From Acidobacteriota bacterium (GTDB taxonomy: Bacteria > Acidobacteriota > Terriglobia > UBA7540): a DNA stretch of 43,940 bases. The notes under the pieces were generated by a model, which saw nothing but the letters and a program-made list of their open reading frames with translations, made no database searches and had not been told where the DNA came from. Position numbers and translations under genes: made by a program. The stretch spans positions 1 to 43,940 of the forward strand of contig QHZO01000217.1 of NCBI GenBank assembly GCA_003224695.1, written 5' to 3'. Below, piece by piece: positions 16,446 through 43,139 of this stretch (positions within the stretch are counted from its first letter, which is position 1; the number at the start of each line of letters is the position of its first letter).

Positions 16446-18900
16446 GTTTGAAGCGCAGACGCGCGAGGCGCTGGCGATGCAGAATGAAGTCAATGCTTTG
16501 AACGAAATGCTCAACCGCCTGGACGGCATGCAGAAACAACTGGCCGCCTTCCGGCGCGTTCGGCGCGGAATACTCGGCGCCACCTCCGCCGCCAAAGCCG
16601 CCCCAATGATGGAACTCCGTTCCCGGGCCGGCGTTGAACAGGTGGAAATCGCTCGACGGGATCTTGGCGTCCATTTCTTCGAGCGGCCGGATGTTGTCAA
16701 GCACAAACAAGCCTCGGCCATGCGTGGCGACAATCAGGTCGTGTTCTTTCTTCGCGAAATTTAGATCGTAGACGGGGACCGTGGGGAAATTGGCCTTGAG
16801 CTCCTGCCAGTGGCCGCCGGCGTCGCTCGAATAATAAAGGCCGCGGTCGGTACCGAGAACCAGCAACCCTTGTTTGTTCGGGTCTTCGCGCACGACGCGG
16901 GCGGAAAAATCCGCCGGCAAGCCTTCCGTGATGCGCGTCCAAGACTTGCCGTAATCCGAGGTCTTATAAACGTACGGGCGGCGGTCGTCGAGCTCGTGGG
17001 CGTCGTAGGCGAGGTAGGCGGTGCCCGCGTCGAATGGCGAAACGCCGATTTGATAGACGCGCGCCCACTCCGGCGCTCCCGTAATGTGCGCGGTCACGTT
17101 CGTCCAATTCTCTCCTCCGTCCCGAGTCACGTGCACCAAGCCGTCGTCCGATCCCACCCAGATCACCTTCGGGTCACTCGGCGCGAGCGTGATGCACATG
17201 ATGGTGTCGTAGTCTTCGGCGCTCGAGATGTCGTGCTGCACCGGCCCGCCGGCAATTTCCTGCTTCGTCTTGTCGTCGCGCGTAAGGTCGGGGCTGATGA
17301 CCGTCCACGACTTTCCGCCGTCCGTGGTCTTAAAGAGCACATTTGCGCCCAAATACACTTCGTTCGCGTCGGTCGCCGAGACGGCGAGGGGCGCGGTCCA
17401 ATTGAACCGGTATTTCAGATCGGCGGGCTTCATCTCTTCCGGCGAGCCGAGGTACGGCCGGATGTAGTGGGAAACGTGCGTCTTCGTATCCAAACGCACG
17501 AGGGAGCCGTCCTGCGAATCCGAGTAGATAATGTCGGGGTCGCTTGGGGCGGGCACCGAGTACTCGCCGTCGCCGCCCACCACGGTGTGCCAGTTGCGAC
17601 CTGTGACGCTGCGGGCCGCCAGGTCCGACGACGGCCCGCACCAGGCGCTGTTGTCCTGCAAACCGCCGCAGAGGTTGTAGGGCTCCTTGCTGTCGGCGGC
17701 GAGCTGATAGAACTGCCCGATGGGCAGCGTGTTCAGGAAGCGCCAGTGCTTGGCGCCGTCAGCGCTGAGAAACACGCCGCCGTCGTTGCCTTGAATCATG
17801 CGGTCGGGATTTTTCGGGTCAATCCAGAGCGTGTGATGGTCGGAATGAACGCCGCGGTCGGCGGGGTGGACCGTCTTGCCGCCGTCGTCGGATTCGAGCA
17901 TATTGAATGAAAGAAAATAGACCTTCATGTCCGTCGCGGGAGAGACGACCATCCGCGAAAAATAAAACGGCCGCACGTCGAGCGCGTGGCTCGAATTCAC
18001 TTCCGTCCAATGGTCGCCGAGGTCGAGCGATTGCCACAGCATCCCGGTCTTCGCGGCGATGAGGGCGTAGATGTGCTGAGGATTCGTGGGGGCAATGGCC
18101 ACGGCGATGCGCCCGAGTGGCCCCTTCGGCAAACCTTCGGTCAGTTTCTTCCAGGTGTCGCCGCCGTCGGTGGAACGATAGATCCCGCTCGACTCACCGC
18201 CGTCTTCGAGCGTCCATGGAAACCGGCGGGCGTGCCACATGCCGGCGAAGATCACCTTGGAATTGTTGAGCGGCATCGCCATATCTGAGACGCCGGTCTG
18301 GTCGTCCACGAAAAGAACTTTGGTCCAAGTCTTGCCGCCGTCCCTCGTGCGATAAACGCCGCGGCCGGCGTTCGGCGCCCAGGCGTGGCCGAGCGCACCG
18401 ACGAAAACCGTGTCTGGGTCTGTGGGATCAACCAGGATTCCGGCAATTTGTCCCACGTCGGCGAGGCCCATGAGCTTCCACGACAGGCCGCCGTCGGGCG
18501 AGAAATAGACACCGCGGCCGTCTATCACATCGTTGCGGATTTTCGACTCGCCCGTGCCCACCCAGATCCAATCCGGGTTCTCGGGCGCGAGCGCGATGGC
18601 GCCGATCGAAGAAGTGCTCTCGTGCTCGAAGATGGGCTTCCAACTGAGCCCGCCGTCAATGGTCTTGAAAACTCCGCCGCCCGCCGCGCCGGCGTAATAA
18701 ATGTTCGGGTTCCCAGGTATGCCTACGACGGCGGCCACGCGGCCGCCCGCCACGGCGGGACCGACATTCCGGAACTTGAGGTTCTTAAGAATGTCGGTAT
18801 TATCCGAGCCGGTTGAAGGGCTTTCCTCTTCCTGCGCCGCCGCCGGTGCGAGCGAAAAAACAGCGATCAAGACCGCGAGAATGACGCACGACTTTTTCAT
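16261..18900 (-). CDS. BNR/Asp-box (sortilin/VPS10-like, glycosyl-hydrolase-like) exported protein, N-terminal main part
   Basis: Signal peptide MKKSCVILAVLIAVFSLAPAAA. About ten Asp-box motifs (TIDGGLSWK, SPDGGLSWK, TRDGGKTWT, STDGGDTWK, TTDGGKSWT, TRDGGENWT and others). Native sequence ends near ..YSAPNAPEG at about 16558. The last roughly 100 codons of the ORF are an antisense or out-of-frame reading of the inverted duplication. Confidence 0.88.
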   Translation of the reverse strand: MKKSCVILAVLIAVFSLAPAAAQEEESPSTGSDNTDILKNLKFRNVGPAVAGGRVAAVVGIPGNPNIYYAGAAGGGVFKTIDGGLSWKPIFEHESTSSIGAIALAPENPDWIWVGTGESKIRNDVIDGRGVYFSPDGGLSWKLMGLADVGQIAGILVDPTDPDTVFVGALGHAWAPNAGRGVYRTRDGGKTWTKVLFVDDQTGVSDMAMPLNNSKVIFAGMWHARRFPWTLEDGGESSGIYRSTDGGDTWKKLTEGLPKGPLGRIAVAIAPTNPQHIYALIAAKTGMLWQSLDLGDHWTEVNSSHALDVRPFYFSRMVVSPATDMKVYFLSFNMLESDDGGKTVHPADRGVHSDHHTLWIDPKNPDRMIQGNDGGVFLSADGAKHWRFLNTLPIGQFYQLAADSKEPYNLCGGLQDNSAWCGPSSDLAARSVTGRNWHTVVGGDGEYSVPAPSDPDIIYSDSQDGSLVRLDTKTHVSHYIRPYLGSPEEMKPADLKYRFNWTAPLAVSATDANEVYLGANVLFKTTDGGKSWTVISPDLTRDDKTKQEIAGGPVQHDISSAEDYDTIMCITLAPSDPKVIWVGSDDGLVHVTRDGGENWTNVTAHITGAPEWARVYQIGVSPFDAGTAYLAYDAHELDDRRPYVYKTSDYGKSWTRITEGLPADFSARVVREDPNKQGLLVLGTDRGLYYSSDAGGHWQELKANFPTVPVYDLNFAKKEHDLIVATHGRGLFVLDNIRPLEEMDAKIPSSDFHLFNAGPGTEFHHWGGFGGGGGAEYSAPNAPEGGQLFLHAVQAVEHFVQSIDFILHRQRLARLRFKPNPPRLRKTSGERIAGILRWRHGAARARRDLPHCRHRQGPNPRDDGGSPLRSEPENSRFGV
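16446..16557. repeat. Right copy of the perfect 112-bp inverted repeat (ectopic, inverted copy)
   Basis: The plus strand here encodes FEAQTREALAMQNEVNALNEMLNRLDGMQKQLAAFRR, the same peptide that is encoded on the minus strand at 16155-16266. Confidence 0.95.
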
Positions 18901-21479: not shown

Positions 21480-21572
21480 ACGCTCCCCACCGATCTCGCT
21501 GGCGCTTATCGGACCTGCCTGAGGCAGGAGGCCGCCATTATGAGAACTTGCTGCGGGAGCTGTCAAGCGATG

Positions 21573-21649
21573 CTGTAGCGGCGAGCTGTGTCTCGCCGCG
21601 TTCAGGAGCGGGACATTGAATGGCGGCGAGACACAGCTCGCCGCTACAG
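21573..21649. repeat. Perfect 27-bp inverted repeat CTGTAGCGGCGAGCTGTGTCTCGCCGC with a 23-nt spacer
   Basis: 21573-21599 is the exact reverse complement of 21623-21649. Each arm is itself a hairpin (GCGGCGAG/CTCGCCGC). Confidence 0.9.
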
Positions 21650-21774
21650 CCCGCGAACACGCTCCGTCCGCTCGCCGGGCGAAGACATCAGCGCCACGGC
21701 TGCGCCCATCGTGAAGAGCGCGTAGCCCGGATGCGCGGCAATGGCCATGATTGAGGAGGGCATGGCAGTTAACC

Positions 21775-21826
21775 GTAGGGGCGGGCCTTGTGCCCGCCAC
21801 GGGGCGACCACGAGGGTCGCCCCTAC
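21775..21826. repeat. REP-like doublet GTAGGGGCGGGCCTTGTGCCCGCCACGGGGCGACCACGAGGGTCGCCCCTAC
   Basis: It contains two sub-hairpins. The terminal CTA (21823-21825) is the TAG stop of the CocE/NonD gene. Confidence 0.85.
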
Positions 21827-27199: not shown

Positions 27200-28384
27200 T
27201 CAAATAATTTTTAGTTTTTTGCCGGCCGCCTCGAGGATTTCGAGAGCGAGGGCCAGTTCTTCGCGCGTGTGAGTGGCGGTGACGATGGTGCGGATGCGGG
27301 CCTTGCCTTTGGGGACGGTGGGAAATCCGATGCCCTGGGCGAACACGCCGGCTTCAAACAGCTCGCGCGAAAACTGATGGGCTAACGCCGCATCGCCGAC
27401 GATCACCGGCGTGATGGGCGTTTCGCTCATGCCGGTATTGAACCCCAGCCTCTTCAGCCCTTCCTTGAAGAACTTCGTGTTGTCCCAGAGACTTTGGATC
27501 AGTTGCGGCTCCTCATCCAGCACTTCGAAGGCCGCAAGACACGACGCGGCCACGGAGGGCGGATGCGAGGTTGAAAACAGAAAAGGCCGCGCGCGATGGT
27601 AGAGAAATTCAATCGCGTCGCGCGTCGAGCACACGTAGCCGCCCAGCGCTCCGACGGCTTTGGAAAGCGTTCCGACCTGAATGTCCACCCGCCCGTGGAG
27701 ATTGAAGTGGTCCACGGTGCCGCGGCCGTTCTTGCCGAGCACGCCCGAGGAATGCGCGTCGTCAATCATCATGATCGCGCCGTAGCGCTCGGCGAGCGCG
27801 ACCAGGCCCGGCAGGGGCGCGATGTCGCCCTCCATCGAAAAGACTCCGTCGGTGATGAGCAGTTTGTGCCCCGGCCGCGCCGCAATTTCCTTCAGCACCT
27901 TTTCGCAGGCGTCGAGGTCTTTGTGTGGGAACACCTTGATTTCCGCGCGGGACAGCCGGCAGCCGTCAATGATCGAGGCGTGGTTGAGCTCGTCGGAAAT
28001 GATGATGTCGTCCTTGCCGAGGATCGCCTGCACGGTGCCGGCGTTGGCCGTGAAGCCGGATTGAAAGACCACCGCCGCTTCGACATTCTTGAACCGGGCG
28101 ATTTTCTCTTCGAGCGCCATGTGGATGGTCATCGTGCCGGCAATCGTCCGCACGGCGCCCGAGCCGACGCCGAAGCGCTCGGTGGCTTCGATGGCCCGCT
28201 GACGAAGCTTGGGGTGGGTCGTGAGCCCAAGGTAGTTGTTCGAGGAGAGGTTGATGACCTTGTGGCCGTCAAACTTCGCGACCGGCAACTGCTCGGTCTC
28301 CAAGATTCTGAGGCGCTGGTAAAGCTTCTCGTGGCGGAGATGGTTGAGCTCGTCGGTGAGGTATTGGAGCTGCGCTTTGGGCAT
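27200..28384 (-). CDS. kbl: 2-amino-3-ketobutyrate CoA ligase (glycine C-acetyltransferase)
   Basis: [35 protein letters not shown] and the PLP lysine in GTLSKAVG. Confidence 0.95.
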
Positions 28385-28393
28385 CTTGAAATC

Positions 28394-28474
28394 AGTGGCA
28401 AGTGGTTAGTGGCAAGTGGCAAGCAGACGGATCAGTCGTTCGAACTTGTCACTTGCCACTAACCACTAGCCACT
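28394..28474. repeat. Heptad-array hairpin in the tdh-kbl intercistronic spacer
   Basis: The left arm is AGTGGCA AGTGGTT AGTGGCA AGTGGCA AG (28394-28423), followed by a 21-nt loop. The right arm (28445-28474) is its reverse complement with 2 mismatches in 30. The right arm contains the tdh TAG stop. Confidence 0.9.
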
Positions 28475-29521
28475 CTCCTTCGGGGGTTTGCCGTTCGGGA
28501 ACATCAAAACCTTGGACGCGTTGCCGGAGAGTAGCAACTCCATGCCGTGTTCGAAATCCGCCATGCCGATGCGGTCCGTGATGAGCGGGGCAAGGTCCAG
28601 CCGGCCGGACTTGAGCAGCGCTTGCATCTGATACCAGGTCTCGAAAACTCGCCGGCCGTTGATGCCCTGCACGACGGCGCCTTTAAAGATCACGTCGTTG
28701 GCCAAGTCCAGCTCCAGCGGCTTCGATGGAATTCCGAGCAGGGAGATGCGCCCGCCGCGGCGCAGCATTTGGAACGCCTGGCGGACCGCGCGCGGATTGC
28801 CTGACATTTCGAGCACCACGTCGGCGCCGACGCCGTTGGTCGCGGCCAGGACCTCGGCCACGGCATCGGTCGTTTCGGGGTCCACCACCATGCTGGCGCC
28901 CACTTTTTCTGCCAGCTTTTGCCGGAAGGGGTGGGGTTCGGTGGCGATAATCGCTCCAGCCCCCGAGGCTCGCGCGACGGCAATGGCGAACAGGCCGATC
29001 GGCCCGCATCCCGTCACTGCCACGCTCAGTCCTGCAATTTCCCCTGCCAGCACCGTATGCACAGCGTTCCCGAGCGGGTCGAGCACCGCCGCGTATTCCA
29101 CGGCGATCGCCGGATCGATTTTCCAAATGTTCGTCTCGGGGATTTTGACGAATTCCGCAAAGCAGCCATCGGTGTCCACGCCGATGATGCGAACATTCTG
29201 GCAGATGTGCCGCTGGCCTGTCCGGCACTGAAAACAACGGCCGCAGGCCAGGTGCATCTCGGCCGACACAAAATCCCCCTCGCGCACGATTTCAACTTCC
29301 GCTCCCACCCGAACCACCGTCCCGCAGAATTCGTGGCCGAAAACTAGTGGCGGCCGAATCCGTTTCGCGGACCAATGGTCCCATTTATAAATGTGCAGGT
29401 CCGTGCCGCAGATAGACGCCGCGCGCACTTCGACCAGAACGTCGCCTGGGCCAAGGTCTGGGATGCGCACTTCCTCGAGGCGGGCGCCGGGCTTGGGCTC
29501 CGGCTTGACAATCGCCTGCAT
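28466..29521 (-). CDS. tdh: L-threonine 3-dehydrogenase (Zn-dependent)
   Basis: MQAIVKPEPKPG...ICGTDLHIYKWD...GHEFCGTVV...CGRCFQCRTGQRHIC...GCGPIGL. Alternative upstream starts exist up to 29560. Confidence 0.93.
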   Translation of the reverse strand: MQAIVKPEPKPGARLEEVRIPDLGPGDVLVEVRAASICGTDLHIYKWDHWSAKRIRPPLVFGHEFCGTVVRVGAEVEIVREGDFVSAEMHLACGRCFQCRTGQRHICQNVRIIGVDTDGCFAEFVKIPETNIWKIDPAIAVEYAAVLDPLGNAVHTVLAGEIAGLSVAVTGCGPIGLFAIAVARASGAGAIIATEPHPFRQKLAEKVGASMVVDPETTDAVAEVLAATNGVGADVVLEMSGNPRAVRQAFQMLRRGGRISLLGIPSKPLELDLANDVIFKGAVVQGINGRRVFETWYQMQALLKSGRLDLAPLITDRIGMADFEHGMELLLSGNASKVLMFPNGKPPKESG

Positions 29522-29585
29522 GGTGGCAGAGGGCATGGGAATTCTGGAAGCGTCCAGCATACAAGCTTAAGCCCGAAGTATAAAG

Positions 29586-29707
29586 GATGAAGTGTGAAGT
29601 CTGAAGTATGAAGCCTGAGAAATAATAGGGGCTAGTGGTATGTGGCTAGTGGCAAGCAGACCGTCGGGTTGCTGGGGCTTGCCACCAGCCACTTGCCACT
29701 AACCACC
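29586..29707. repeat. One-armed heptad array plus a heptad-array hairpin in the divergent tdh/araB spacer
   Basis: The one-armed array is GATGAAG TGTGAAG TCTGAAG TATGAAG CCTGAGA (29586-29620). Then GCTAGTGGTATGTGGCTAGTGGCAAGC (29631-29657) pairs imperfectly with GCTTGCCACCAGCCACTTGCCACTAACCACC (29677-29707). Confidence 0.85.
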
Positions 29708-29818
29708 GGGTGCCCTGCTCGATCCGGCGGATGGCTTGACAGGCGCCGAGCAGTCCATTACGGTGAGCGCATCCCGGCCCGGGTGATGCGTCGTCGCCCG
29801 CCGAAAGCGGGGATCAGC

Positions 29819-31519
29819 ATGGGCAAGGACAAAGTCGCGTTGGGTATTGATTACGGCACGGAGTCCGGTCGTGTGGTCGTGGTGCGGGTGCGGGACGGCG
29901 AGCAAATCGCCTCCGCCATTGTGCCTTATGCGGACGGCGTGATTGACGAACGGCTGCCGAAGGGCCCCAGGCTCGAGCCCGACTGGGCGCTCCAGAATCC
30001 GCGTGACTACCTCCTGGTGGTCGAAAAAGGCGTCCCCAAGGCGCTCAAGGCGGCGCGCGTCAAAGGCGAAAACGTCATTGGCATAGGCACGGATTTCACG
30101 GCCTCAAGCCCCATGCCCACGAAGCGCGACGGCACGCCGCTTTGCTACCTCCCACAATACCGCAAGCACCCGCACGCCTGGGTCAAGTTATGGAAGCACC
30201 ACGCCGCGCAGGCTGAGGCCAACCGCATCAACGAAATCGGCCGCGCGCGGAATGAGGAATTCATTCGCATTTACGGCGGCAAGTATTCCTCCGAGTGGTT
30301 TTTCTCAAAGCTTCTCCAGGTCCTCGACGAAGCGCCGGAGATTTACGAGGCCATGGACCGTTTCATCGAGGCGGCCGACTGGATCGTCTGGCAACTGACC
30401 GGAGTCGAGAAGCGCAACACCTGCACGGCGGGCTACAAAGCCATGTGGGTGAAAAGCCGCGGATTCCCCACGCGCGAGTTCTTCCGGGCGCTTCATCCGC
30501 GCATGGAAAACGTCGTCGAGGAAAAGCTGACGGAAGATTATTTCCCGCTCGGCGGGCGCGCCGGCGGCCTCGCTCCTGCCTGGGCGCGAAAGACCAGCTT
30601 GCCCGAGGGCACTCCCGTCTCGATTGGCAACGTGGACGCGCACGTCGCCGTGCCGGCCTGCGGCGTCACCGAAGCCGGGTCGCTCGTGATGATCATGGGC
30701 ACCTCCATCTGCCACATGCTGCTCGGGACCAACCGGCAGATGGTCGAGGGCATGTGCGGCACGGTCGAAGACGGCATCGTGCCCGGGTTGTGGGGATACG
30801 AGGCGGGCCAATCGGCGGTGGGTGACATCTTCGCCTGGTTTTTCGAGCACGGCGTCCCGGAATACATCTGGAAGGGGGCGCGTCCGTCAGCCGGCGGGCG
30901 CGATGTCACCGCGGAACTCGAAAAACACGCGGCGGCGCTTCGGCCGGGAGAGTCGGGCCTGGTGGCGCTCGACTGGTGGAACGGCAACCGCTCGGTTCTG
31001 GTGGACGTGGACTTGACGGGCGTGATCCTCGGCATGACGCTCGCGACGCGCGCCGAGGAAATTTACCGCGCGCTCATCGAAGCTACGGCCTTTGGCACGC
31101 GCACCATCGTCGAAGCCTTCGAATCGAAAGGCATCCCGGTGAAAAACCTTGTTGCCTGCGGCGGCTTGCCGGAAAAGAATCGTCTGCTCATGCAGATTTT
31201 CGCCGACGTCACGGGGCGCGAAATTCGGCTGGCCAAGAATCTTCAAACGTGCTCGGCGCTCGGCGCCGCCATGCACGGGGCGGTGGCGGCGGGGCGAGCC
31301 GCGGGCGGCTACGACACGATTTTCGAAGCGACTGAGAAAATGGCGCACACCCAGAAATTGGTTTACAAGCCGCGGCAGGGGCATCGCGAAATCTACGATC
31401 GCTTGTTCAAGGAATACCAAACACTCCACGATTACTTCGGGCGTGGAGCAAATGATGTGATGAAGCGGTTGAAAGAGCTGAAGAAAAGCTGTCAGTCGTC
31501 AGTTGTCAGTCGTCAGTAG
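29819..31519 (+). CDS. araB: Ribulokinase (FGGY family)
   Basis: The start MGKDKVALGIDYGTESGRVVVV is at 29819. GKYSSEWFFSKLLQVLDEAPEIY is typical of ribulokinases. The last 10 codons (SCQSSVVSRQ) and the TAG stop are encoded by a heptad array. Confidence 0.92.
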   Translation: MGKDKVALGIDYGTESGRVVVVRVRDGEQIASAIVPYADGVIDERLPKGPRLEPDWALQNPRDYLLVVEKGVPKALKAARVKGENVIGIGTDFTASSPMPTKRDGTPLCYLPQYRKHPHAWVKLWKHHAAQAEANRINEIGRARNEEFIRIYGGKYSSEWFFSKLLQVLDEAPEIYEAMDRFIEAADWIVWQLTGVEKRNTCTAGYKAMWVKSRGFPTREFFRALHPRMENVVEEKLTEDYFPLGGRAGGLAPAWARKTSLPEGTPVSIGNVDAHVAVPACGVTEAGSLVMIMGTSICHMLLGTNRQMVEGMCGTVEDGIVPGLWGYEAGQSAVGDIFAWFFEHGVPEYIWKGARPSAGGRDVTAELEKHAAALRPGESGLVALDWWNGNRSVLVDVDLTGVILGMTLATRAEEIYRALIEATAFGTRTIVEAFESKGIPVKNLVACGGLPEKNRLLMQIFADVTGREIRLAKNLQTCSALGAAMHGAVAAGRAAGGYDTIFEATEKMAHTQKLVYKPRQGHREIYDRLFKEYQTLHDYFGRGANDVMKRLKELKKSCQSSVVSRQ

Positions 31520-31620
31520 AGGAACAAAGGCCGGGCATCCGTTTGCCCGGGGCTCTTGCCGCGTAGCGAATACTGAGGACCGATGACCGAAAGCTGAAAG
31601 CTGACGGCTGACAACTGAAA
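31488..31620. repeat. Heptad-array hairpin at the 3' end of araB
   Basis: The left arm is GCTGTCA GTCGTCA GTTGTCA GTCGTCA (31488-31515). The right arm is ACTGAGG ACCGATG ACCGAAA GCTGAAA GCTGACG GCTGACA ACTGAAA (31572-31620). The spacer holds a GC hairpin CCGGGCAtccgttTGCCCGG. Confidence 0.85.
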
Positions 31621-31630
31621 GCTTGCTACC

Positions 31631-32284
31631 ATGCCAACGCTCGAGCACCTCCGCCGGGAAGTTTGGAAGGCCAACCGCGAGATCTTTCGCTCGGGCCTCG
31701 TGACCGTGCACGCGGGGAACGCGAGCGGCATTGACCGCAAGCGCGGCCTCGTGCTGATCAAGCCGAGCGGCGTGGACTACGACTCGCTCCGCCCGGCGGA
31801 CCTTGTGGTGACCGACCTCGACGGCCGCAAAGTCAAAGGGCGTTACAAACCTTCCGTGGATTTGCCGCACCACCTTTATCTTTACCGCCATTGTCCCGAG
31901 GTCGGCGGCGTCATCCACACGCACTCGAATTACGCCACGGCGTTTGCGCTGCTCGGACGGGCGATACCGGCTTATCTCACCGCCATCGCCGACGAGTTCG
32001 GCGACGGAATCCCCTGCGCGCCCTACGTGGATAATCAGGGTGACCACATCGGCGAAGCGATTCTTAAGCACAAAACCCGGGCGCCGGCAGTGTTGCTGGC
32101 GCACCACGGCGCGTTCACGTTTGGCGAGACTCCGCGCGACGCTCTGAAGGCCGCCGTCATGCTCGAAGACGTCGCCAAAACGTGCTTCCTGGCGCTGCTC
32201 CTCGGCAAACCCGAACCGCTGGCCGCCGAAGAGGCGCGCAAGTGGTACGACCGGTATCATTCGACCTACGGCCAGGAGAAATAA
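31631..32284 (+). CDS. araD: L-ribulose-5-phosphate 4-epimerase (class II aldolase fold)
   Basis: LRREVWKANREIFRSGLVTVHAGNASGIDRKRGLVLIKPSGVDYDSL...DLPHHLYLYRHCPEVGGVIHTHS. Confidence 0.92.
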   Translation: MPTLEHLRREVWKANREIFRSGLVTVHAGNASGIDRKRGLVLIKPSGVDYDSLRPADLVVTDLDGRKVKGRYKPSVDLPHHLYLYRHCPEVGGVIHTHSNYATAFALLGRAIPAYLTAIADEFGDGIPCAPYVDNQGDHIGEAILKHKTRAPAVLLAHHGAFTFGETPRDALKAAVMLEDVAKTCFLALLLGKPEPLAAEEARKWYDRYHSTYGQEK

Positions 32285-32431
32285 TGTGGGTACCGGCTCA
32301 ATTTGTGCCGGAGGCTTCCACTATCTGTGGGCGCTCCAAGGCTAGTCGGGAATGCCCACGTCGCCTCTGAGTACCCCTTCCGCTTCGCGTGATACAATCG
32401 CTTGCGTGTTCAGCGACGCCGCCCGCGCCCT

Positions 32432-33541
32432 ATGACTTACGAATCAGTTGACCATCTCCAGAAGGTTTTAGCTGAGAAGGTCTTCCATTATACGAAGGAT
32501 GCGAAAAAGGCGGCCGGAAGGGCGCTCGGGACGCTCGTGGAAATCATCACGTTCTATGTCCTTAAGTCCTGGGGATTTGAACATTCAGTGGCTATAGAGA
32601 CGGCCTTGCCCGAGTACGGCAATCCCGAAATCACTCACAACGTCGAGTACTCGCTTCACGCAAAACTTCGAAAGCAAAGGATAAAATTGGTAGGCGCGTC
32701 ACCCATTTCATCAAAGAGGATTCTGGACGAAGTCGACGAGCGTGGCATCTCGGTGGCGGGCTTCGATAGGTCTGGCAATGTTCTGCTCACCTCGAACGCG
32801 GTCCTCAGAAATTCGTGTGTGGTAGCGAGCGGCCCCCGATCCAACCTTGTCGCCACCTTGGATTCGCTAGTGCGAGCGAAGCGGTACGCAATCTTTGAGT
32901 GTAAACGAGTTGGCGTCGAAGAGGGGATGAAGAAGGGTCCACAGACGATCGAAAAGGCCAAACAAGGGGCTTACGTGGCCAAGTCCGTCTCGTCCCTCCA
33001 GAAGGTACGTACCCCATCCGGCGAGCTTCACGGCCTCATCTACAAATCCACCGGGCTTATGTACTCGAAGGCTTACTTGGAGCTGCTTACGGAGGTTATT
33101 GCATCTGACGACAGGGAACTTCTGCGGGACTTCATCCTTACGGTCGGAGTAGTTAGCAATCACGGGAACTGGTTCACTTCGGATGACCATAACAAGGAAC
33201 TCAAAGTGCTCGCGCAATCGTACGATTGGCTAATTTTCCTAACTGACCAGGGACTGGCCCAGTTCATAACACAACTCCTACTCCGGCCCGAACCGATGCT
33301 GATTCCGGCGAGGGAAGCCTTCCTTGCAAGCTATTCGGCCGACAAGAAGAAGAATAAATTCACAAAAGTTCAGATGGGGTACGAGGCGGATCAAGTTTTG
33401 CAGACTTACTTCAGGAAAAACCGGACCGTGATAGAAGGATGGTTCAACGTTATTGCGCCCGACCGCGGTACGATGCCAGAATTGAGGTCGCAGCTCTCGC
33501 GATTGCGCGGTAAAGGCTGGCGGGCTGTCCACGAACTATGA
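32432..33541 (+). CDS. Putative restriction endonuclease (PD-(D/E)XK-like), coupled to the downstream Dam-type methyltransferase
   Basis: ATG at 32432 (MTYESVDHL). LDSLVRAKRYAIFECKRVG gives a D-X11-E-C-K pattern. The stop overlaps the methyltransferase start (ATGA at 33538-33541). A sample line gives about 48% G+C. I do not recognise the family with confidence. Confidence 0.5.
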   Translation: MTYESVDHLQKVLAEKVFHYTKDAKKAAGRALGTLVEIITFYVLKSWGFEHSVAIETALPEYGNPEITHNVEYSLHAKLRKQRIKLVGASPISSKRILDEVDERGISVAGFDRSGNVLLTSNAVLRNSCVVASGPRSNLVATLDSLVRAKRYAIFECKRVGVEEGMKKGPQTIEKAKQGAYVAKSVSSLQKVRTPSGELHGLIYKSTGLMYSKAYLELLTEVIASDDRELLRDFILTVGVVSNHGNWFTSDDHNKELKVLAQSYDWLIFLTDQGLAQFITQLLLRPEPMLIPAREAFLASYSADKKKNKFTKVQMGYEADQVLQTYFRKNRTVIEGWFNVIAPDRGTMPELRSQLSRLRGKGWRAVHEL

Positions 33542-34137
33542 CAGCAGGGAGAAAGGTCGTTGGGCACAGCAGGGACTGGGGTACTCCGAAAAAGTACGTT
33601 GAAGCGGTAAGGGAAGTTTTCGGAGGCACAGTCGACCTTGACCCATGCTCCAAACGCTTTTCGGTGGTGAAGGCGCGGGTGGAATACTTACTGCCGGAAC
33701 ATGATGGGCTGAGGGAGTCCTGGAATTTCCCGACAATCTATGTCAATCCACCCTATGGTGCTGACCAAGAGCACGGAACGACCATAAAGAATTGGCTAAG
33801 GAAGTGTGATGAGGCGCACAGGCTCCACGGGTCTGAGGTGCTAGCGTTAGTTCCGGTTGCCACCAATACCGACCATTGGAAGAGATATGTATTCGGGAAG
33901 GCAGCAGCTATCTGTTTCTTGTACGATACCCGGCTACGTTTCTTAGTAGGAGGCCAGGACGGAGGAAAGGGGGCGCCCATGTCCTGCGCAATGGTCTACT
34001 GGGGAGCTAACTTCGAGCGCTTTTTCGAGGTTTTCATGCGTTATGGCGCTGTCGTCGATATCGGCAAGCTGAAGGGCCTGCAGATAGGCCGAGAAACCGA
34101 TGGCAACGGCCAGCGGGAGTTCGCAGACTTCATTTGA
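33538..34137 (+). CDS. Phage-type DNA N6-adenine methyltransferase (Dam family, NPPY)
   Basis: DWGTPKKYVEAVREVFGGTVDLDPCS...HDGLRESWNFPTIYVNPPYG...ALVPVATNTDHW...FLYDTRLRF matches the layout of the small phage Dam-like (PF05869-type) methylases. The family assignment is from memory. Confidence 0.85.
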   Translation: MTAGRKVVGHSRDWGTPKKYVEAVREVFGGTVDLDPCSKRFSVVKARVEYLLPEHDGLRESWNFPTIYVNPPYGADQEHGTTIKNWLRKCDEAHRLHGSEVLALVPVATNTDHWKRYVFGKAAAICFLYDTRLRFLVGGQDGGKGAPMSCAMVYWGANFERFFEVFMRYGAVVDIGKLKGLQIGRETDGNGQREFADFI

Positions 34138-34244
34138 GGACCGGCCCAGCGGGGCCGCGCCAATTGCGTCCCATGAAATGTCGAAACGAGTCAAGCATCA
34201 AGGTCTTGACAGTTTCCGGGGGCCGCCGTCATGATGAATGGCCT

Positions 34245-34333
34245 TGTAGCGGCGGCGTCACTTCGGCTTCGCTCAGTGCAGGCCCCGCCGTCGCGAGCTC
34301 GAACAATTCGGCGATGAGGACATCGCCGCTACA
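34245..34333. repeat. Imperfect inverted repeat TGTAGCGGCGGCGTC / GACATCGCCGCTACA at the right edge of the low-GC cassette
   Basis: The arms are 15 nt with 2 mismatches and a 59-nt spacer. The GTAGCGGCG word is the same as in the repeat at 21573-21649. Confidence 0.6.
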
Positions 34334-34348
34334 GCTTACGAACCCTCG

Positions 34349-36064
34349 ATGAATCCTTCGATCCTTGCGCCCGCGATGCTCGCTGAGTCCGGCGGGATGG
34401 TTTCTCTCCACCCCGTGGACCTCGCCATTGTGACCGTTTATTTCGTGATGGTCCTCGGCATCGGTTTTTACCTGAAAAAATACACGAAGAGCGGCGAGGA
34501 CTTTTTTCTCGCCGGGCGCGAGATGACCGCGTGGGTCGCCGGACTCGCCTTTATTTCCGCCAACCTCGGATCGTTGGAACTCATGGGCTGGGCCGCCAAC
34601 GCTTACCAATACGGCATTCTGGCCGCGCATTGGTATTGGGTGGGCGCCATTCCGGCGATGCTCTTCCTCGGCATCGTGATGATACCGTTTTATTACATCT
34701 CGAAAACCCACTCGGTTCCCGGCTATCTCGAGCTGCGCTACGGCCACGCCACGAGCGGCCTGAGCGCCATCACCTTCGCCGTGATGACGATCCTGATGTC
34801 CGGTGTCAACATGTATGCGATGGCGGTGGTGATGCAGGTCATCCTGGGGTGGAACATTCACTTCAGCATCTGGGTTTCATCGCTGACGGTGGGCGTCTAC
34901 GTCGCGCTCGGAGGGCTTTATTCGGCCATCTTCAACGAGGTGGTCCAATTCTTCCTGATCTGGCTGGGGGCGCTGCTGGTTCCGATCCTGGGGCTGGTGG
35001 AGGCCGGGGGCTGGTCGGGAATGGTCGCGCGCATCAAGGAGAATTTTCCAGGAGAAGATTTCACCCACATGTGGGGGCCGATGCTTCACCCTTCACAGAA
35101 CCCCATGGGCGTGCAGTGGGTGGCCATCGTTTTCGGCCTCGGCGCCGTGCTTTCGATGGGGTACTGGACGACGGACTTTCTGGTGGTGCAGCGCGTCCTC
35201 GCGGCCAAGGATATTCGCGCGGCAAAAACGGCGCCCATCATCGGCGCGTTCTTCAAGATGGCCGTGCCGTTCATCGTGATTCTGCCCGGCTTGCTGGGCT
35301 TGGCGGTGCTTCCTTTCCATCTTTATCCTGCCAACGTGGCGACAGCCGGGCAGCACGACTATAACCAAGTGCTGCCGCTGATGATGGCGCGGTATCTGGG
35401 CCCCGGCTTGCTGGGCCTGGGCATCACAGCGCTCATCGCGGGATTCATGTCGGGCATGGCCGGCAACGTCAGCGCCTTCGCCACCGTGTGGACGTACGAC
35501 CTCTACCGACCTTTCATGAAGAAGAACGCCACTGACGCGCACTATCTCGTCATGGGCCGCTGGTGCACGATCATCGGTGTTATCGTCAGCATCAGCGCGG
35601 CGTACATCGTGAACCGTTTCGGAAGCCTGATGGATTACGTCCAGGCGCTCTTCAGCTTTTTCATCGCTCCGCTGTTCGGCACCGTCATCATCGGAATGCT
35701 CTGGAAGCGCGCCACCAAAGCGGCGGGCTTCTGGGGGCTGCTGGCGGGCATTTCGACCGCCATCGGCATCTTCGTGATCATCCGCGAACATCCGAGCAGC
35801 GTGGCATGGTTCTGCTTCTATGCCGGGGCCAAGCCCCTCGCGCAACAGATGTGGCAGGCGCTCTGGGCATTCGTCATGGTCGTGGCCGTTTCCGTGATCG
35901 TCACGGCGGCAACAGAACCGCGGCCGGAGGGCGAGTTGCGCGGCCTCGTCATGGGCCTGACAGAAGTTCCGAGCGAAGGCCATCTGCCGCTCGTCCAGCG
36001 GCCGATCTTTTGGGCCGGCATTTGCTTCGGTATATTTCTAGTCCTCCAGTGGATTTTCCGATGA
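34349..36064 (+). CDS. Sodium:solute symporter family (SSS/SGLT-like) transporter
   Basis: About 13-14 TM helices. DFFLAGREMTAWVAGLAFISANLGSLELMG...GYLELRYG is a typical SSS N-terminal signature. Confidence 0.92.
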   Translation: MNPSILAPAMLAESGGMVSLHPVDLAIVTVYFVMVLGIGFYLKKYTKSGEDFFLAGREMTAWVAGLAFISANLGSLELMGWAANAYQYGILAAHWYWVGAIPAMLFLGIVMIPFYYISKTHSVPGYLELRYGHATSGLSAITFAVMTILMSGVNMYAMAVVMQVILGWNIHFSIWVSSLTVGVYVALGGLYSAIFNEVVQFFLIWLGALLVPILGLVEAGGWSGMVARIKENFPGEDFTHMWGPMLHPSQNPMGVQWVAIVFGLGAVLSMGYWTTDFLVVQRVLAAKDIRAAKTAPIIGAFFKMAVPFIVILPGLLGLAVLPFHLYPANVATAGQHDYNQVLPLMMARYLGPGLLGLGITALIAGFMSGMAGNVSAFATVWTYDLYRPFMKKNATDAHYLVMGRWCTIIGVIVSISAAYIVNRFGSLMDYVQALFSFFIAPLFGTVIIGMLWKRATKAAGFWGLLAGISTAIGIFVIIREHPSSVAWFCFYAGAKPLAQQMWQALWAFVMVVAVSVIVTAATEPRPEGELRGLVMGLTEVPSEGHLPLVQRPIFWAGICFGIFLVLQWIFR

Positions 36065-36066
36065 AA

Positions 36067-36162
36067 GAGTCGAAGGTCGAGAGTCGAAAGCCGGTGGTTA
36101 AGACCTTGGACTCTCGACCTTAGACCATCGACACTGAGGCCTGATAGCTGAGGGCTGACAAC
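36067..36162. repeat. Heptad-array hairpin plus a one-armed array at the 3' end of the symporter gene
   Basis: GAGTCGA AGGTCGA GAGTCGA (36067-36087) pairs with TGGACTC TCGACCT TAGACCA TCGACAC (36107-36134). It is followed by TGAGGCC TGATAGC TGAGGGC TGACAAC (36135-36162). Confidence 0.85.
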
Positions 36163-36164
36163 TT

Positions 36165-36449
36165 ATGGAAACCGAACCGCGAGGGGATCGAAACCGAGGA
36201 GGTGGGCGCCAAGTCGTCGCGGACGTCGAGGAACCGGCGCACCGCGAGCACCACATTATTCCCGTGTGGTTTTTTATCGGCGTCCAACTGCTCATCTATG
36301 GGATCTTGATTTTCTTTAGCGGCCTCTCTGAATTTTCCCATCCGCCGGATACTGTCCTCTCGAACCTCCATGCCCCCATTTGGTGGGGCGCGCTGCTGGT
36401 CGCCATCGGCGGAATCTACGTTTATCTTTTCCGTCCTGGAAGGAAGTGA
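36165..36449 (+). CDS. Small two-TM membrane protein (start uncertain)
   Basis: HHIIPVWFFIGVQLLIYGILIFFSGL...APIWWGALLVAIGGIYVYLF forms two hydrophobic helices. The N-terminal roughly 25 codons are Arg/Gly-rich and may not be translated. Confidence 0.5.
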   Translation: METEPRGDRNRGGGRQVVADVEEPAHREHHIIPVWFFIGVQLLIYGILIFFSGLSEFSHPPDTVLSNLHAPIWWGALLVAIGGIYVYLFRPGRK

Positions 36450-36516
36450 ACGGGACCGCTCTGGTCCAATGGCACGACCCTAAACATTCAGATCCCTGGT
36501 TAGGTTGCTGAAATTT

Positions 36517-36635
36517 GTAGGGGCGCGCGGCGCGCGCCCCTAGACGCGGACGGCAAGGGGGCGGACGCTGTGCGCCGCCAGAGGGGGGCGAACGCCGTTC
36601 GCGGACAGACTGGGGCGAACGCCGTTCGCCCCTAC
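36517..36635. repeat. Cluster of REP-like palindromes between convergent genes
   Basis: GTAGGGGCGCGCggCGCGCGCCCCTA, then GGGGGCGGACGCTGTGCGCCGCC, then two direct copies of GGGGCGAACGCCGTTCGC, the last ending CCCCTAC. The final CTA (36632-36634) is the TAG stop of the minus-strand membrane-protein gene. Confidence 0.85.
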
Positions 36636-38416: not shown

Positions 38417-38429
38417 CTAATTTCCTCCT

Positions 38430-38508
38430 GGATTCCCGCTTTCGCGGGAATGACGACATCATGGGAATTGAAACCACTAATAAGTCATTCCCGCGAAAGC
38501 GGGAATCC
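38430..38508. repeat. Perfect 25-bp inverted repeat GGATTCCCGCTTTCGCGGGAATGAC (GTCATTCCCGCGAAAGCGGGAATCC type)
   Basis: 38430-38454 is the exact reverse complement of 38484-38508, with a 29-nt spacer. Each arm contains its own hairpin (CCCGC tttc GCGGG). Confidence 0.9.
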
Positions 38509-38530
38509 ATCGGTCAGACCACATTGAAGG

Positions 38531-40956: not shown

Positions 40957-43059
40957 GTGAAAATTTACGACGGCACCAACCTTCGCAACGTCGCACTTGT
41001 CGGCCACGGCCACACGGGCAAGACGCAATTAGTTTCGGCGCTGCTCTTCACGGCCGGCATGGTCAACCGGCTCGGGAAAGTGGACGAGGGGACCTCCGTA
41101 ACCGATTACGACGAGGAAGAGATTCAGCGCAAGGTCTCGATCAGCGTGGCGCTCGCCCACGCCGAGTGGGGCAAATCCAAAATCAATTTCATTGATACGC
41201 CCGGGTACAACATCTTCTTTCACGAGACGGAAGGCGCGGTGGTGGCGGCCGACGCCGCCCTGCTTTTGATCCACGGCGTGGCGGGAATGGAAGTGCAAAC
41301 GGAAAAGGCCTGGAAACTCGCGGATAAGCACGGCCTGCCGTGCGCGTTGGTGATCAATCAGTTGGACCGCGACCGGGCAAGCTTCGAGCGCTCGCTCGAA
41401 GCCGCCAAGTCGGCCTTCGGACGCGGCGTCGTCCCTGTCGTCTTGCCCTTGGGAGAGGAAAGGAACTTCAAGGGTGTCGTGGACCTGGTCAGGATGAAAG
41501 CCTGCCTTTACGACGCCCATGGTTCCGGCAAGGCCAAGGAAGCCGAGATTCCGGCGGAGCTTCGCGCCGCGGCCGATGAGGCGCACGAAGCGCTGGTCGA
41601 AATGGTGGCGGAAGGCAACGACAAGTTGCTGGAGGAATTCTTCGAGAAGGGCACCATCCCGCTCGACGACCTGGTGCCGGGCCTCCGGCAGGCGGTCCTC
41701 GATCGGCGCGTATTTCCGGTGCTGGCCACCTCGGGCCTCTCGAACATAGGGAGCGAGAACCTGCTGAACTTTATAGCGGATGCTTTGCCGTCGCCGGCAG
41801 ACCGCTCGGAGGCGGAGGGATTCGCGAGCGAAGGCGGAGAGCCCGTGAAGCGCCGGATCGCCGACGACCAAGCTCTCTCCGTGTTCGTCTTCAAGACCGT
41901 CGCGGACCCCTTCGCCGGACGCGTCAGCTATTTCCGCGTCATGTCGGGCGTGGTGAAGAATGAGGCGAATTTGGTGAATTTTACGCGAGGCGGCGGGGAG
42001 CGGCTTTCGCACATCGCGGTCGTTCAGGGGAAGACGCAGGTGCCCGTGGCGGAATTGCGCGCCGGGGACCTGGGCGCGGTGGCGAAGCTGAAAGATACGC
42101 TTACCGGCGACACGCTGGGGGACAAAGGCGCTCCCATCATCTATCCCAAGCTCCAACTCGCTGAGCCCGCCATCTCCTTCGCCATCGAGCCGAGGTCGCG
42201 CGGCGACGAGGACAAACTTTCTTCGGCCATTCATCGCATGCTCGAGGAAGACTCGCTGCTGCGCTTCTCGCGCGACGGGCAGACGAAAGAGTTTCTCATC
42301 GCCGGGTCCGGCCAGCAGCACGTCGAGGTCGCGGTCGCCAAGCTCAAGAAGCGCTTCAACGTGGAAGTGACGCTCAAAGCGCCCAAAGTCCCCTACCGCG
42401 AAACCATCCGCGCCAAGGCTGACGCGCAGGGCAAACACAAGAAGCAGACCGGCGGCCACGGGCAGTATGGCGAATGCAAAATCAAGCTGGAGCCGCTCGC
42501 GCGCGGCGCCGGCTTCGAGTTCGTCAACGATATTTTCGGCGGCGCCATTCCCAAGAATTTCATCCCCGCGGTCGAAAAGGGCATTGTCGAGGCCGCGGCC
42601 AGAGGGTATCTCGCGGGCTATCCGGTGGTGGACTTCCGCGTCATTCTCTACGACGGTTCCTACCACGATGTTGATTCCTCGGAGATCGCCTTTAAGCTCG
42701 CCGGCTCGAAAGGTTTCAAGGCGTGCATGGAGCAGGCGAAGCCGTGTTTGCTCGAGCCGATTATGAACGTGGAGATCACGGTGCCGGAGACAAACTCCGG
42801 CGACATCATGGGGAACCTCAACGGCCGCCGCGGGCGCATCCAGGGCATGGACAATAAGAGTGGCTCTGCGATTGTCAAAGCCCAGGTGCCGCTCTCCGAG
42901 ATGCTGACGTACGCCTCCGACCTGACCTCCATGACCCAGGGTCGGGGAACGTACTCGATGGAGTTTTCCCACTACGACATCGTGCCGCAACACATCGCAG
43001 ACAAGATTGTCGGCGCCTCGAAGGCCGCCGGGGTGGGCAAGGAAGAAGAAGAGGAATAG
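40957..43059 (+). CDS. fusA: Elongation factor G family GTPase (EF-G paralog type)
   Basis: A GTG start at 40957 lies 6 nt after GAAGGAG. G motifs: NVALVGHGHTGKT, DTPGY, NQLD. EF-G domains II-V are recognisable (..GDLGAVAKL.., ..KKQTGGHGQYG.., ..YHDVDSSE..). Confidence 0.93.
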   Translation: MKIYDGTNLRNVALVGHGHTGKTQLVSALLFTAGMVNRLGKVDEGTSVTDYDEEEIQRKVSISVALAHAEWGKSKINFIDTPGYNIFFHETEGAVVAADAALLLIHGVAGMEVQTEKAWKLADKHGLPCALVINQLDRDRASFERSLEAAKSAFGRGVVPVVLPLGEERNFKGVVDLVRMKACLYDAHGSGKAKEAEIPAELRAAADEAHEALVEMVAEGNDKLLEEFFEKGTIPLDDLVPGLRQAVLDRRVFPVLATSGLSNIGSENLLNFIADALPSPADRSEAEGFASEGGEPVKRRIADDQALSVFVFKTVADPFAGRVSYFRVMSGVVKNEANLVNFTRGGGERLSHIAVVQGKTQVPVAELRAGDLGAVAKLKDTLTGDTLGDKGAPIIYPKLQLAEPAISFAIEPRSRGDEDKLSSAIHRMLEEDSLLRFSRDGQTKEFLIAGSGQQHVEVAVAKLKKRFNVEVTLKAPKVPYRETIRAKADAQGKHKKQTGGHGQYGECKIKLEPLARGAGFEFVNDIFGGAIPKNFIPAVEKGIVEAAARGYLAGYPVVDFRVILYDGSYHDVDSSEIAFKLAGSKGFKACMEQAKPCLLEPIMNVEITVPETNSGDIMGNLNGRRGRIQGMDNKSGSAIVKAQVPLSEMLTYASDLTSMTQGRGTYSMEFSHYDIVPQHIADKIVGASKAAGVGKEEEEE

Positions 43060-43066
43060 GCGGGCT

Positions 43067-43093
43067 GTAGGGGCGAACGGCGTTCGCCCCTAC
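43067..43093. repeat. REP-like palindrome GTAGGGGCGAACggCGTTCGCCCCTAC
   Basis: It lies 8 nt after the EF-G stop. It is the same unit as at 36612-36635, in the opposite orientation (loop GG instead of CC). Confidence 0.85.
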
Positions 43094-43139
43094 CTCCCGC
43101 CAAGTCGGCGGACGATTCCAGGCGCACCACGGAGGTTCC

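Follow-up and report, generated by a model that had tools for sequence, protein, structure and literature searches.

The 43,940-nt contig QHZO01000217.1 of a soil bacterium of the Acidobacteriota (assembly GCA_003224695.1; analysed over its full length and called the window here) carries hairpins whose arms consist of tandem, degenerate 7-nt words. Four of them, numbered 1 to 4 along the window, are located at the borders of the tdh, kbl, araB, araD and symporter genes, and further arrays of the same period have one arm only or lie inside a gene (Table 1). Heptad-armed hairpins are common in Terriglobia, the group of Acidobacteriota in which the window is placed (best tdh matches of 80-81% amino-acid identity in a tdh-anchored scan with one genome per species), and dozens of other genomes show this architecture. 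We read these elements as a Terriglobia-wide population of small DNA palindromes of tandem 7-nt words whose origin and turnover take place in the DNA itself, rather than as RNA structures kept by compensatory substitutions, a reading that we consider about equally likely to be right or wrong. A DNA-level process is favoured because the arms are inverted copies of each other, words and occupants change at orthologous sites, arrays occur in frame within genes and arm mismatches show no G-U polarity. Of the two origins offered in a first-pass annotation of this DNA, the copy mechanism is thus favoured by the inverted unit copies, the word turnover and the in-frame arrays, and the missing G-U polarity speaks against covariation.

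All sequences quoted in that annotation were found in place, and the hairpins it had described at four loci were confirmed in sequence, coordinates and inverted pairing, with arms being 93%, 86%, 94% (core) and 90% complementary in hairpins 1 to 4, respectively. Tandem Repeats Finder returned period-7 arrays at every one of these loci and, in addition, six unlisted arrays at 3968-4135 and 4575-4610. These six arrays (3968-4135 and 4573-4610) are located inside the open reading frame (ORF) 3387-5294, so that the statement that all copies sit exactly at gene boundaries had to be given up. At lag 7, 90 window positions showed at least 16/21 self-matches, as compared to 0-7 positions at the other lags between 3 and 15 with the exception of lag 14 (26 positions), whose signal is the second harmonic of 7. 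Merging resulted in seven strong arrays in the window, 60 first-order Markov simulations giving a mean of 0.05 and a maximum of 1. The binomial p value at lag 7 ranged from 1e-7 to 3e-10 for the arms of hairpins 1 and 3 and for most in-ORF arrays; for the single arms of these two hairpins taken with the 29586-29620 array it spanned 2e-8 to 7e-7. Both one-armed arrays that had been pointed out earlier were recovered, the one upstream of tdh (29586-29620 in the annotation) being strong with p = 7e-7, and the one at 36135-36162 (lag-7 matches 13/21, p = 6e-4) being a borderline member since it was missed at the stringent threshold. Taken singly, the latter and the arms of hairpins 2 and 4 are weak (p of about 1e-3 to 1e-4) and credible in context only. 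All four hairpins are predicted to fold strongly (-42 to -65 kcal/mol), and against dinucleotide shuffles their z-scores lie between -3 and -10.

An identical tdh is present on ten contigs, each assembled from a different ENA, JGI or Logan sample, and hairpin 1, hairpin 2 and the one-armed array did not show a single difference among them wherever they were covered. Hairpin 1 is complete in nine of the ten contigs and hairpin 2 in eight, the remaining contigs ending within a hairpin, and several contigs stop, or switch partner, exactly at a hairpin. As the hairpins are identical in contigs from different samples wherever covered, they are real and not a product of assembly. In practical terms, these elements break metagenome assemblies.

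The census covered the window and 160 related loci, 1.67 Mb in total (L-numbers denote the related loci or contigs compared with the window), and the same criterion, four units with lag matches of at least 76%, was applied to all periods. It yielded 92 arrays of period 7, 12 each of periods 5 and 8, one of period 10 and none of periods 11 and 13. A reverse-complement partner within 220 nt was present for 50 of the 92 heptad arrays versus 1 in the reversed-sequence control, and the scan of relatives that the annotation had proposed thus recovered the paired design. The 34 hairpins have arms of 16-42 nt (mode 24-32 nt, corresponding to about four heptads) and loops of 10-81 nt, none being shorter than 10 nt. 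The heptad words are AT-richer than the genome, and different sites share a word in 27% of the within-locus pairs but in 7% of the between-locus pairs (odds ratio 4.9, p = 1e-5). The idea that the loci share an architecture and no sequence does not hold for loci 1 and 2 and the orthologue in L096, which have the word AGTGGNN and homologous loops in common. Sites of one genome also share words about five times more often than sites of different genomes. A crude split by longest open frame showed arrays to be enriched outside long ORFs (52% vs 16% below 600 nt), a result that is qualitative only, the split being unreliable at 60% GC. Arrays with four deviations had 4.17 invariant columns as compared to 3.73 expected under random substitution, and a unit of five fixed and two variable positions was dropped as a mechanistic signature, being marginally above the random-substitution null.

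The two arms of the hairpins correspond to each other in the order of their units. Summed matches amounted to 634, compared with 581.5 ± 8.9 for random order and 616 ± 7.8 when the best of three was taken (p = 0.009), demonstrating that the arms are true inverted copies, unit by unit and in order. This summed-score permutation test was used instead of a Fisher combination of per-hairpin permutation ranks, which was not significant (p = 0.30). The comparison of in-register with ±7-shifted arm identity (86% vs 76.5%) was dropped, as the choice of the best register confounds it. No consistent G-U polarity was detectable among the arm mismatches (p = 0.93), the overall excess of G-T over A-C mismatches being a scoring artefact.

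Comparison of orthologous spacers for presence or absence, another check put forward in the annotation, revealed that the occupant of the tdh-kbl spacer differs among relatives. In L096, whose tdh is 91% identical at the amino-acid level, the spacer holds an AGTGG hairpin as in the window, its right arm having three instead of four heptads, the variable bases being different and the loop lying in the opposite orientation. Two relatives at 80% amino-acid identity (L092 and L001) have an ATTCA/TGAAT hairpin at this site, L093 (79%) has a one-armed TTCATNA array, L095 has a REP-like element (REP, repetitive extragenic palindromic) of a GTAG-tagged family that is also present in the window, and in L094 the spacer is empty. 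Some long hairpin is found within the tdh-kbl spacer of most Terriglobia loci. Within the window, hairpins 1 and 2 share the word AGTGGNN, and their loops are homologous to each other and to that of L096, with identities of 15/21 (hairpin 2 vs L096) and 12/21. With the exception of these three, loops are unrelated between copies with conserved arms.

Two observations concern the same spacer. In many Terriglobia it carries hairpins with arms of quasi-repeats of about 10 nt (GCAGATnnnn, CACGGATnnn) and folds of -45 to -94 kcal/mol (L008, L011, L013, L016, L022, L031, L062, L064, L068, L072 and L079), which look like a sister family of repeat-armed hairpins of different period. In L090 (Logan SRR5438046) tdh and an identical hairpin 1 are followed by a gene for a MacB/FtsX-like permease where kbl is expected, the switch point being exactly the last heptad of the hairpin 1 homologue; the junction points to another copy of the element elsewhere in the genome, joined by recombination or in a chimera, or else to a real rearrangement at the hairpin.

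Heptad arrays are also translated. The five abutting arrays at 3968-4135 (p = 4e-5 to 2e-8) encode a 56-residue hypervariable loop of a DUF7948/SBBP protein, and homologues have 0-65 residues at this site, which is flanked by invariant motifs. No fold was predicted for these arrays (z = +0.95). The AATTCAK array downstream of them in the same gene has 24/29 matches at lag 7 (p = 3e-10). One copy of the GTAG-tagged REP-like family is translated in frame in the SBBP gene as well (peptide GAGLVPAPVPAGTGPAHGRPQGSP), with related peptides at that site in homologues.

The second gene with in-frame elements is mnmG (gidA), for which orthologues (L171-L174; proteins P0121-P0240) were collected by protein search and contig look-ups, L073 being the only tdh-anchored locus that contains it. 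Acidobacteriaceae MnmG proteins comprise 698-908 residues instead of the usual ~625 with cores that are 84-90% identical, the extra length being made up of the occupants of three fixed sites, which are heptad hairpins or REP-like palindromes. In L073 (Acidobacteriaceae) two complete GTTTCRA hairpins and a one-armed array are translated into VSSFEFQVSS...LETRNSKLET, low-complexity loops of this type inflating protein lengths. One of the sites holds a GTTTCRA, a GTCAGTT or an AGTGGAT hairpin depending on the genome. Orthologous mnmG hairpins have conserved outer units, and inner units and loops differ; the hairpin of L171 has four units on the left and six on the right, that of L172 five and four. 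L173 retains only the outer units of the L172 hairpin, site 1 being down to 48 nt, a state that outgroup comparison of the sequences identifies as a 54-nt central deletion. In L174 site 2 is empty, and a chimeric element combines a left arm formed by a CCAGTNA array, a word that is also present at another site of the gene, with a right arm homologous to an arm of L172, the two arrays being non-complementary. In L073, where mnmG spans 5966-8236 on the minus strand, the extra length also includes a palindrome of 42 nt that has a direct duplication of 21 nt on its flanks (7760-7840).

In-frame palindromes in conserved genes have a parallel in Rickettsia, where the palindromic elements termed RPE form families of 100-150 bp that enter conserved protein genes without shifting the frame, so that the protein gains surface peptide segments and the gene stays intact. 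The Terriglobia elements behave in the same way, the in-frame insertions into conserved genes being found at positions where homologues have none. This is a likeness in behaviour and not in sequence family, since RPEs lack tandem-heptad arms and no sequence relationship is implied. RPEs and intragenic REPs serve as precedent for in-frame palindromic insertions (PMC3733652).

A DNA-level origin could proceed as follows. Slipped-strand duplication would amplify a 7-nt word to about three to five units, and intrastrand (fold-back) template switching would lay an inverted copy of the array nearby, giving rise to a second arm that is kept matched unit by unit. Copies of the same word might then exchange by ectopic gene conversion or by microhomology-primed template switching, which would spread words to new sites of the genome, swap or flip loops and replace arms. 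The hairpin tips would be the unstable part, subject to loop replacement, nested insertions and central deletions, and palindrome toxicity would cap the arms near 30 nt and hold the loops at 10 nt or more. Elements would survive only where they are tolerated, that is in short operon spacers, at gene ends and in permissive protein loops if in frame, and effects at the RNA level would be a by-product. That slippage and template switching, followed by gene conversion and breakage at the tips, are responsible is our inference, the last two resting on what is known of palindromes in Escherichia coli. There, quasipalindrome template-switch mutagenesis copies one arm of an imperfect inverted repeat onto the other, SbcCD acts on palindromes, and long palindromes without a loop are not tolerated. 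These systems offer a known route for arm-to-arm copying and an explanation for the intolerance of long loop-less palindromes. Quasipalindrome mutagenesis, however, generates point mutations and small indels at existing quasipalindromes and is not known to make periodic arrays or to spread words.

Several observations weigh against this origin. AGT or ACT is contained in 49% of the words as compared to 13% of background 7-mers, and the same few words recur in distant genomes (AACGACC in seven arrays, GGACCTC, AAGTGGC, ACTGANN). Undirected slippage predicts neither the recurrence nor the bias, hinting at a sequence-specific activity or constraint. Whole hairpins are found in the middle of conserved genes, where microhomology of 3-5 nt is all that could obviously have seeded them. 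The ten near-identical assemblies showed no strain-level polymorphism, including in unit number, and slippage is therefore not fast at the level of strains. The slippage account also gives no reason for the period of 7, the size of about four units, the AGT/ACT anchoring or the vocabulary shared across genomes. Finally, the evidence consists of contigs and loci, and multicopy status is known at this level. The slippage and template-switch account is thus the best supported yet incomplete.

Sharing of arms within genomes, and in one case of the loop too (hairpin 1, hairpin 2 and L096), would also be explained if the elements were non-autonomous and mobile, similar to MITEs (miniature transposable elements with inverted repeats) or REPs, and moved by a trans-acting enzyme, either a HUH/Y1 transposase acting on single-stranded hairpins or an AGT/ACT-recognising activity. 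We regard this explanation as unlikely to be right, yet as a serious rival. It accounts for the sharp element ends, including the L090 junction at which the downstream gene changes exactly at the last heptad, for presence, absence and different occupants at orthologous sites, for insertions in conserved genes as known for Rickettsia RPEs and intragenic REPs (PMC3733652) and for the AGT/ACT anchoring of the words, and RAYT-like Y1 transposases (RAYT, REP-associated tyrosine transposase) are encoded by Terriglobales. Yet a target-site duplication was visible at none of the compared boundaries, and same-word copies within one genome mostly have unrelated loops, so that the hallmarks of MITEs are missing apart from the homologous loops of hairpin 1, hairpin 2 and L096. 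Arms, moreover, differ by whole units, and chimeric arms exist. Unlike REPs and REPINs, the heptad hairpins have AGT... at their beginning, ...ACT at their end and no GTAG tag, a tag that is present in the separate GTAGGGGCG family of the window.

RAYT/TnpA-REP enzymes, suggested in the annotation as mobilising candidates, did not qualify in the two lineages sampled. The window has no Y1 transposase gene or other transposase gene, and in both Terriglobales RAYT-like lineages examined the genes (P0283 and P0267) are flanked by non-heptadic terminal inverted repeats (TIRs), which differs from the REPtron arrangement. A tblastn search with an approximate E. coli RAYT sequence had given one truncated homologue, and full-length Terriglobales homologues were then compared. 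As an observation in its own right, the Terriglobales RAYT-like (PF01797) genes in L175-L182 are bracketed by palindromic TIRs of 43-45 nt (TGGCCCAGGTTCGCGCC..GGCGCTAACCTGGG), each of which is a small hairpin, located ~45-90 nt upstream of the Y1_Tnp genes and overlapping their 3' end. This layout matches the TIRYT/TIRtron arrangement described for Acidobacteria (PMC3733652).

It is unlikely that the elements are selected cis-acting RNA or DNA signals, be it mRNA stabilisers or processing sites, terminators without U-tract, translational-coupling devices or protein-binding arrays of the IHF/HU or Csp/S1 type. In favour of such signals, the stems are very stable and occupy the gap from a stop codon to the following start, which lies 2-9 nt further on, and some long hairpin is present in the tdh-kbl spacer of most Terriglobia loci. 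For the tdh-upstream array, which overlaps a promoter-like match, two relatives at ~80% amino-acid identity offer a heptad-like counterpart, and heptamer repeats lie near start codons in Beggiatoaceae and Nostoc (PMC4679880; bioRxiv 10.1101/2022.06.06.494920). The word varies by locus, however, so that one sequence-specific binder cannot serve all copies, and the spacer occupants are interchangeable with REP-like elements or with nothing. The same arrays also encode protein loops in frame, one-armed arrays showing no fold there, and there is no U-tract, no G-U polarity and no Rfam family. A selected cis-regulatory role is possible for individual copies such as the tdh-upstream array, but does not fit the family as a whole.

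A dedicated, AGT/ACT-anchored enzyme that works on single-stranded DNA, by nicking and priming or by templated synthesis, might write about four heptads and their inverted copy, and the same mechanism might operate in Geobacter, in cyanobacteria (where the STRR word is GGGGAYT), in Beggiatoaceae and in Terriglobia. We consider this improbable; if it were true, heptamer repeats would form one cross-phylum class of synthesised mobile repeats and not be products of slippage. Chance similarity or an assembly artefact, to which the single weakness of the arms of hairpins 2 and 4 and of the 36135-36162 array and the several short contigs ending inside hairpins might be ascribed, is refuted by 7 arrays versus 0.05 expected, by a partner test far above its controls (47 vs 1-2), by identity in ten independent contigs wherever covered and by occurrence in dozens of genomes.

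The annotation had assigned the hairpins to no described class of elements, a view that the literature contradicts. In Geobacter metallireducens, 'class 3' elements comprise eight pairs of sites with five tandem MTYCTGA heptads each, on opposite strands and 71-114 nt apart, one pair being located between proB and proA, and 'H4' elements consist of four GGACCGG units in 49 copies, which are intergenic or intragenic, some genes having more than one (Aklujkar et al. 2009, PMC2700814). Geobacter sulfurreducens does not have the elements. The same genome has 21 pairs of sites with three 8-9-nt repeats, and all these elements were read, without tests, as sites for global regulators (IHF/HU) or regulatory RNA (PMC2700814). 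They are like those of Terriglobia in having four to five degenerate heptads, opposite-strand pairs ~80-110 nt apart (corresponding to ~30-nt arms and variable spacers), a location in operon spacers, single arrays between or inside genes and several word classes per genome. They differ in belonging to another phylum and in their words, which resemble each other only loosely (ATTCTGA and AATTCAG/AATCTGN, GGACCGG and GGACCTC). An evolutionary analysis, turnover, in-frame MnmG hairpins and word replacement are absent from the 2009 account and are described here for Terriglobia. The heptad-armed design was thus catalogued earlier without explanation, Terriglobia being an unusually rich new membership.

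Heptameric repeats are over-represented among prokaryotic simple-sequence repeats (SSRs) and were studied in Xanthomonas (GGGAATC) and Nostoc, with occasional inverted pairs, and TAACTGA repeats, which usually lie shortly before start codons, are known from Beggiatoaceae, cyanobacteria and Bacteroidetes; polymerase slippage has been proposed to underlie the 7-nt preference (PMC4692102, PMC4679880). A Csp/S1-type single-strand binder was proposed for the TAACTGA repeats (PMC4679880), and regulatory effects were reported for the Nostoc heptamer repeats (bioRxiv 10.1101/2022.06.06.494920). Like the Terriglobia elements, these SSRs have a 7-nt unit, are mostly intergenic and often lie beside start codons, include occasional inverted pairs and vary in length and sequence between close relatives, and several of their words contain (C)AGT/ACT(G). 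In contrast, they are usually near-perfect, with one or few words per genome and up to 43 copies, whereas Terriglobia have three to five degenerate units, many words and hairpins for about half of the arrays. The elements of the window belong with the tandem heptanucleotide repeats in that they have at least three units beyond chance, opposite-strand pairs and multiple copies inside and between genes (eight sites in the window, two of them within an ORF). Their words are not those of the described families (MTYCTGA, GGACCGG, TAACTGA, GGGAATC, CCCCAGT), the loose resemblances being confined to AATTCAK (4573-4610), one CCCCAGT unit (4119-4125) and TAACTGA-like units in L055.

REPs and REPINs (PMC3116915, PMC3733652) are likewise imperfect palindromes of small size and in multiple copies; they are located between genes that are co-directional or convergent, and can supply stop codons or sit in genes, and in L095 such an element is an interchangeable occupant of the same spacer. 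The heptad hairpins differ in having no GTAG/CGTC tag, in their longer, periodic arms (~30 nt) and in their long, variable loops, and the window contains a true GTAG-type REP family besides them. The annotation was hence correct in setting them apart from GTAG-type REPs as well as from plain microsatellites and from CRISPR arrays, the latter being excluded since the 7-nt units are contiguous and have no spacers. No description of heptad elements in Acidobacteria was found in full-text literature searches. Heptamer repeats are the class of longer SSRs that has been noted as over-represented across bacteria. With the Terriglobia data (word replacement at fixed sites, the design of about four plus four units, the many words, in-frame hairpins in housekeeping genes such as mnmG and loop turnover), comparative and population genomics can directly address how such repeats originate, in particular whether slippage or a dedicated activity is at work and what part gene conversion and unstable hairpin tips play.

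Table 1. Heptad elements of the window and the genes next to them
Feature	Position	Strand	Units and structure	Location
Five abutting arrays of about four heptads	3968-4135	+	words AAGTCAA, AGTGRCG, GAACTCN, ATTCANA, CCCYAGC	in frame in ORF 3387-5294
AATTCAK array	4573-4610	+	five units; peptide NSEFIIHNSELE	in frame in ORF 3387-5294, second hypervariable site
kbl	27200-28384	-		gene call
Hairpin 1	28394-28474		arms 28394-28423 / 28445-28474, four AGTGGNN heptads each	tdh-kbl operon spacer
tdh	28466-29560	-		gene call
One-armed array TGAAGNN (CTTCANN on tdh strand)	29576-29619		about six units	16 nt upstream of tdh start
Hairpin 2	29630-29704		AGTGGNN family, 19-nt loop	divergent tdh/araB spacer
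araB	29786-31519	+		gene call
Hairpin 3	31486-31624		left arm four GTCAGNN, right arm five CTGANNN	araB 3' end to araD
araD	31631-32284	+		gene call
SSS symporter	34349-36064	+		gene call
Hairpin 4	36067-36134		GTCGANN arms; core pairing 36069-36088 / 36106-36125; 17-nt loop	
Weak one-armed array TGANNNC	36135-36162		four units	ends 2 nt before start of 94-aa ORF
94-aa ORF	from 36165	+		gene call

Three of the four hairpins are located between co-directional genes, in spacers of 81-111 nt. In all, the elements fill four spacers, tdh-kbl, tdh/araB, araB-araD and the one between the symporter gene and the 94-aa ORF. Hairpin 1 has 30-nt arms and a 21-nt loop, lag-7 matches of 19/23 per arm and a predicted fold of -55/-60 kcal/mol (z = -9.9/-9.6); one arm includes the tdh stop codon (28466-28468, minus strand), and the other is 9 nt away from the kbl start (28384). 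Hairpin 2 has 28-nt arms (z = -4.0/-5.8). The left arm of hairpin 3 forms the last ten codons and the stop codon of araB (31517-31519), and its right arm stops 6 nt ahead of the araD start. Its 18-nt paired core is extendable to 31 nt, the loop of 77-84 nt contains a nested GC-rich hairpin (31531-31550), Tandem Repeats Finder revealed a 14-nt higher-order repeat at 100%, and the predicted fold reaches -64.8 kcal/mol (z = -4.6). Hairpin 4, with 20-nt arms (p of about 1e-3 singly) and a fold of -41.8 kcal/mol (z = -3.0), begins 3 nt past the symporter stop codon (36062-36064), the paired core starting at 36069.

The hairpins are not classical terminators. A terminator scan left all four uncalled and no T-run or U-tract follows them, an intrinsic (Rho-independent) terminator being ruled out on both grounds. 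Rfam gave no match at gathering thresholds in the whole window and none at E ≤ 1 in 28000-36500, and no tRNA or tmRNA genes were found in the window. In mRNA, the hairpins must fold into stem-loops of high stability, placed directly against the following start codon and overlapping or trailing the stop codon before it, so that a ribosome completing the upstream gene would have to open them. As a plausible side effect, translation of the downstream gene would be coupled to that of the upstream one, or the stability of the mRNA would be altered. Stems of -40 to -65 kcal/mol right before operon start codons deserve to be considered when gene expression in Acidobacteria is modelled.

The one-armed array upstream of tdh (lag-7 matches 20/28, p = 7e-7) overlaps a sigma-70-like match, TTCAGA-N17-TATACT. 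Two relatives at 79-81% amino-acid identity (L093 and L002) have a heptad-like CTTNANN / CCTTNAN stretch in the same place upstream of tdh as the CTTCANA array of the window, unlike what is seen for the hairpins. Based on the counterpart in two relatives and the promoter-like overlap this array may have a regulatory role.

The remaining observations concern other parts of the window. Between araD and the symporter gene, a 1.7-kb insert (32402-34137) encodes at least one ORF without Pfam match and a Dam-like N6-adenine methyltransferase (PF05869) and looks like a small restriction-modification or phage-derived island within the sugar-utilisation cluster. A perfect 112-nt inverted repeat (16155-16266 / 16446-16557, spacer 179 nt) overlaps the ORFs 15756-16733 (minus strand) and 16261-18900 (minus strand, BNR/sortilin-like); it lies outside the coverage of the independent contig L081 and may represent either a large palindrome of the genome or an artefact of fold-back during assembly. 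Perfect palindromes are present at 21572-21650 (28-nt arms, 23-nt loop; GCTGTAGCGGCGAGCTGTGTCTCGCCGC) and 38429-38509 (26-nt arms, 29-nt loop; TGGATTCCCGCTTTCGCGGGAATGAC), their sequences being unrelated and non-heptadic. The GTAG-tagged REP-like palindromes (GTAGGGGCG...CGCCCCTAC), which often form doublets, are located at 1993-2050, 4391-4471, 21775-21826, 36517-36635 and 43054-43106, and at 36557-36630 this family forms a tandem of 2.7 copies of 27 nt.

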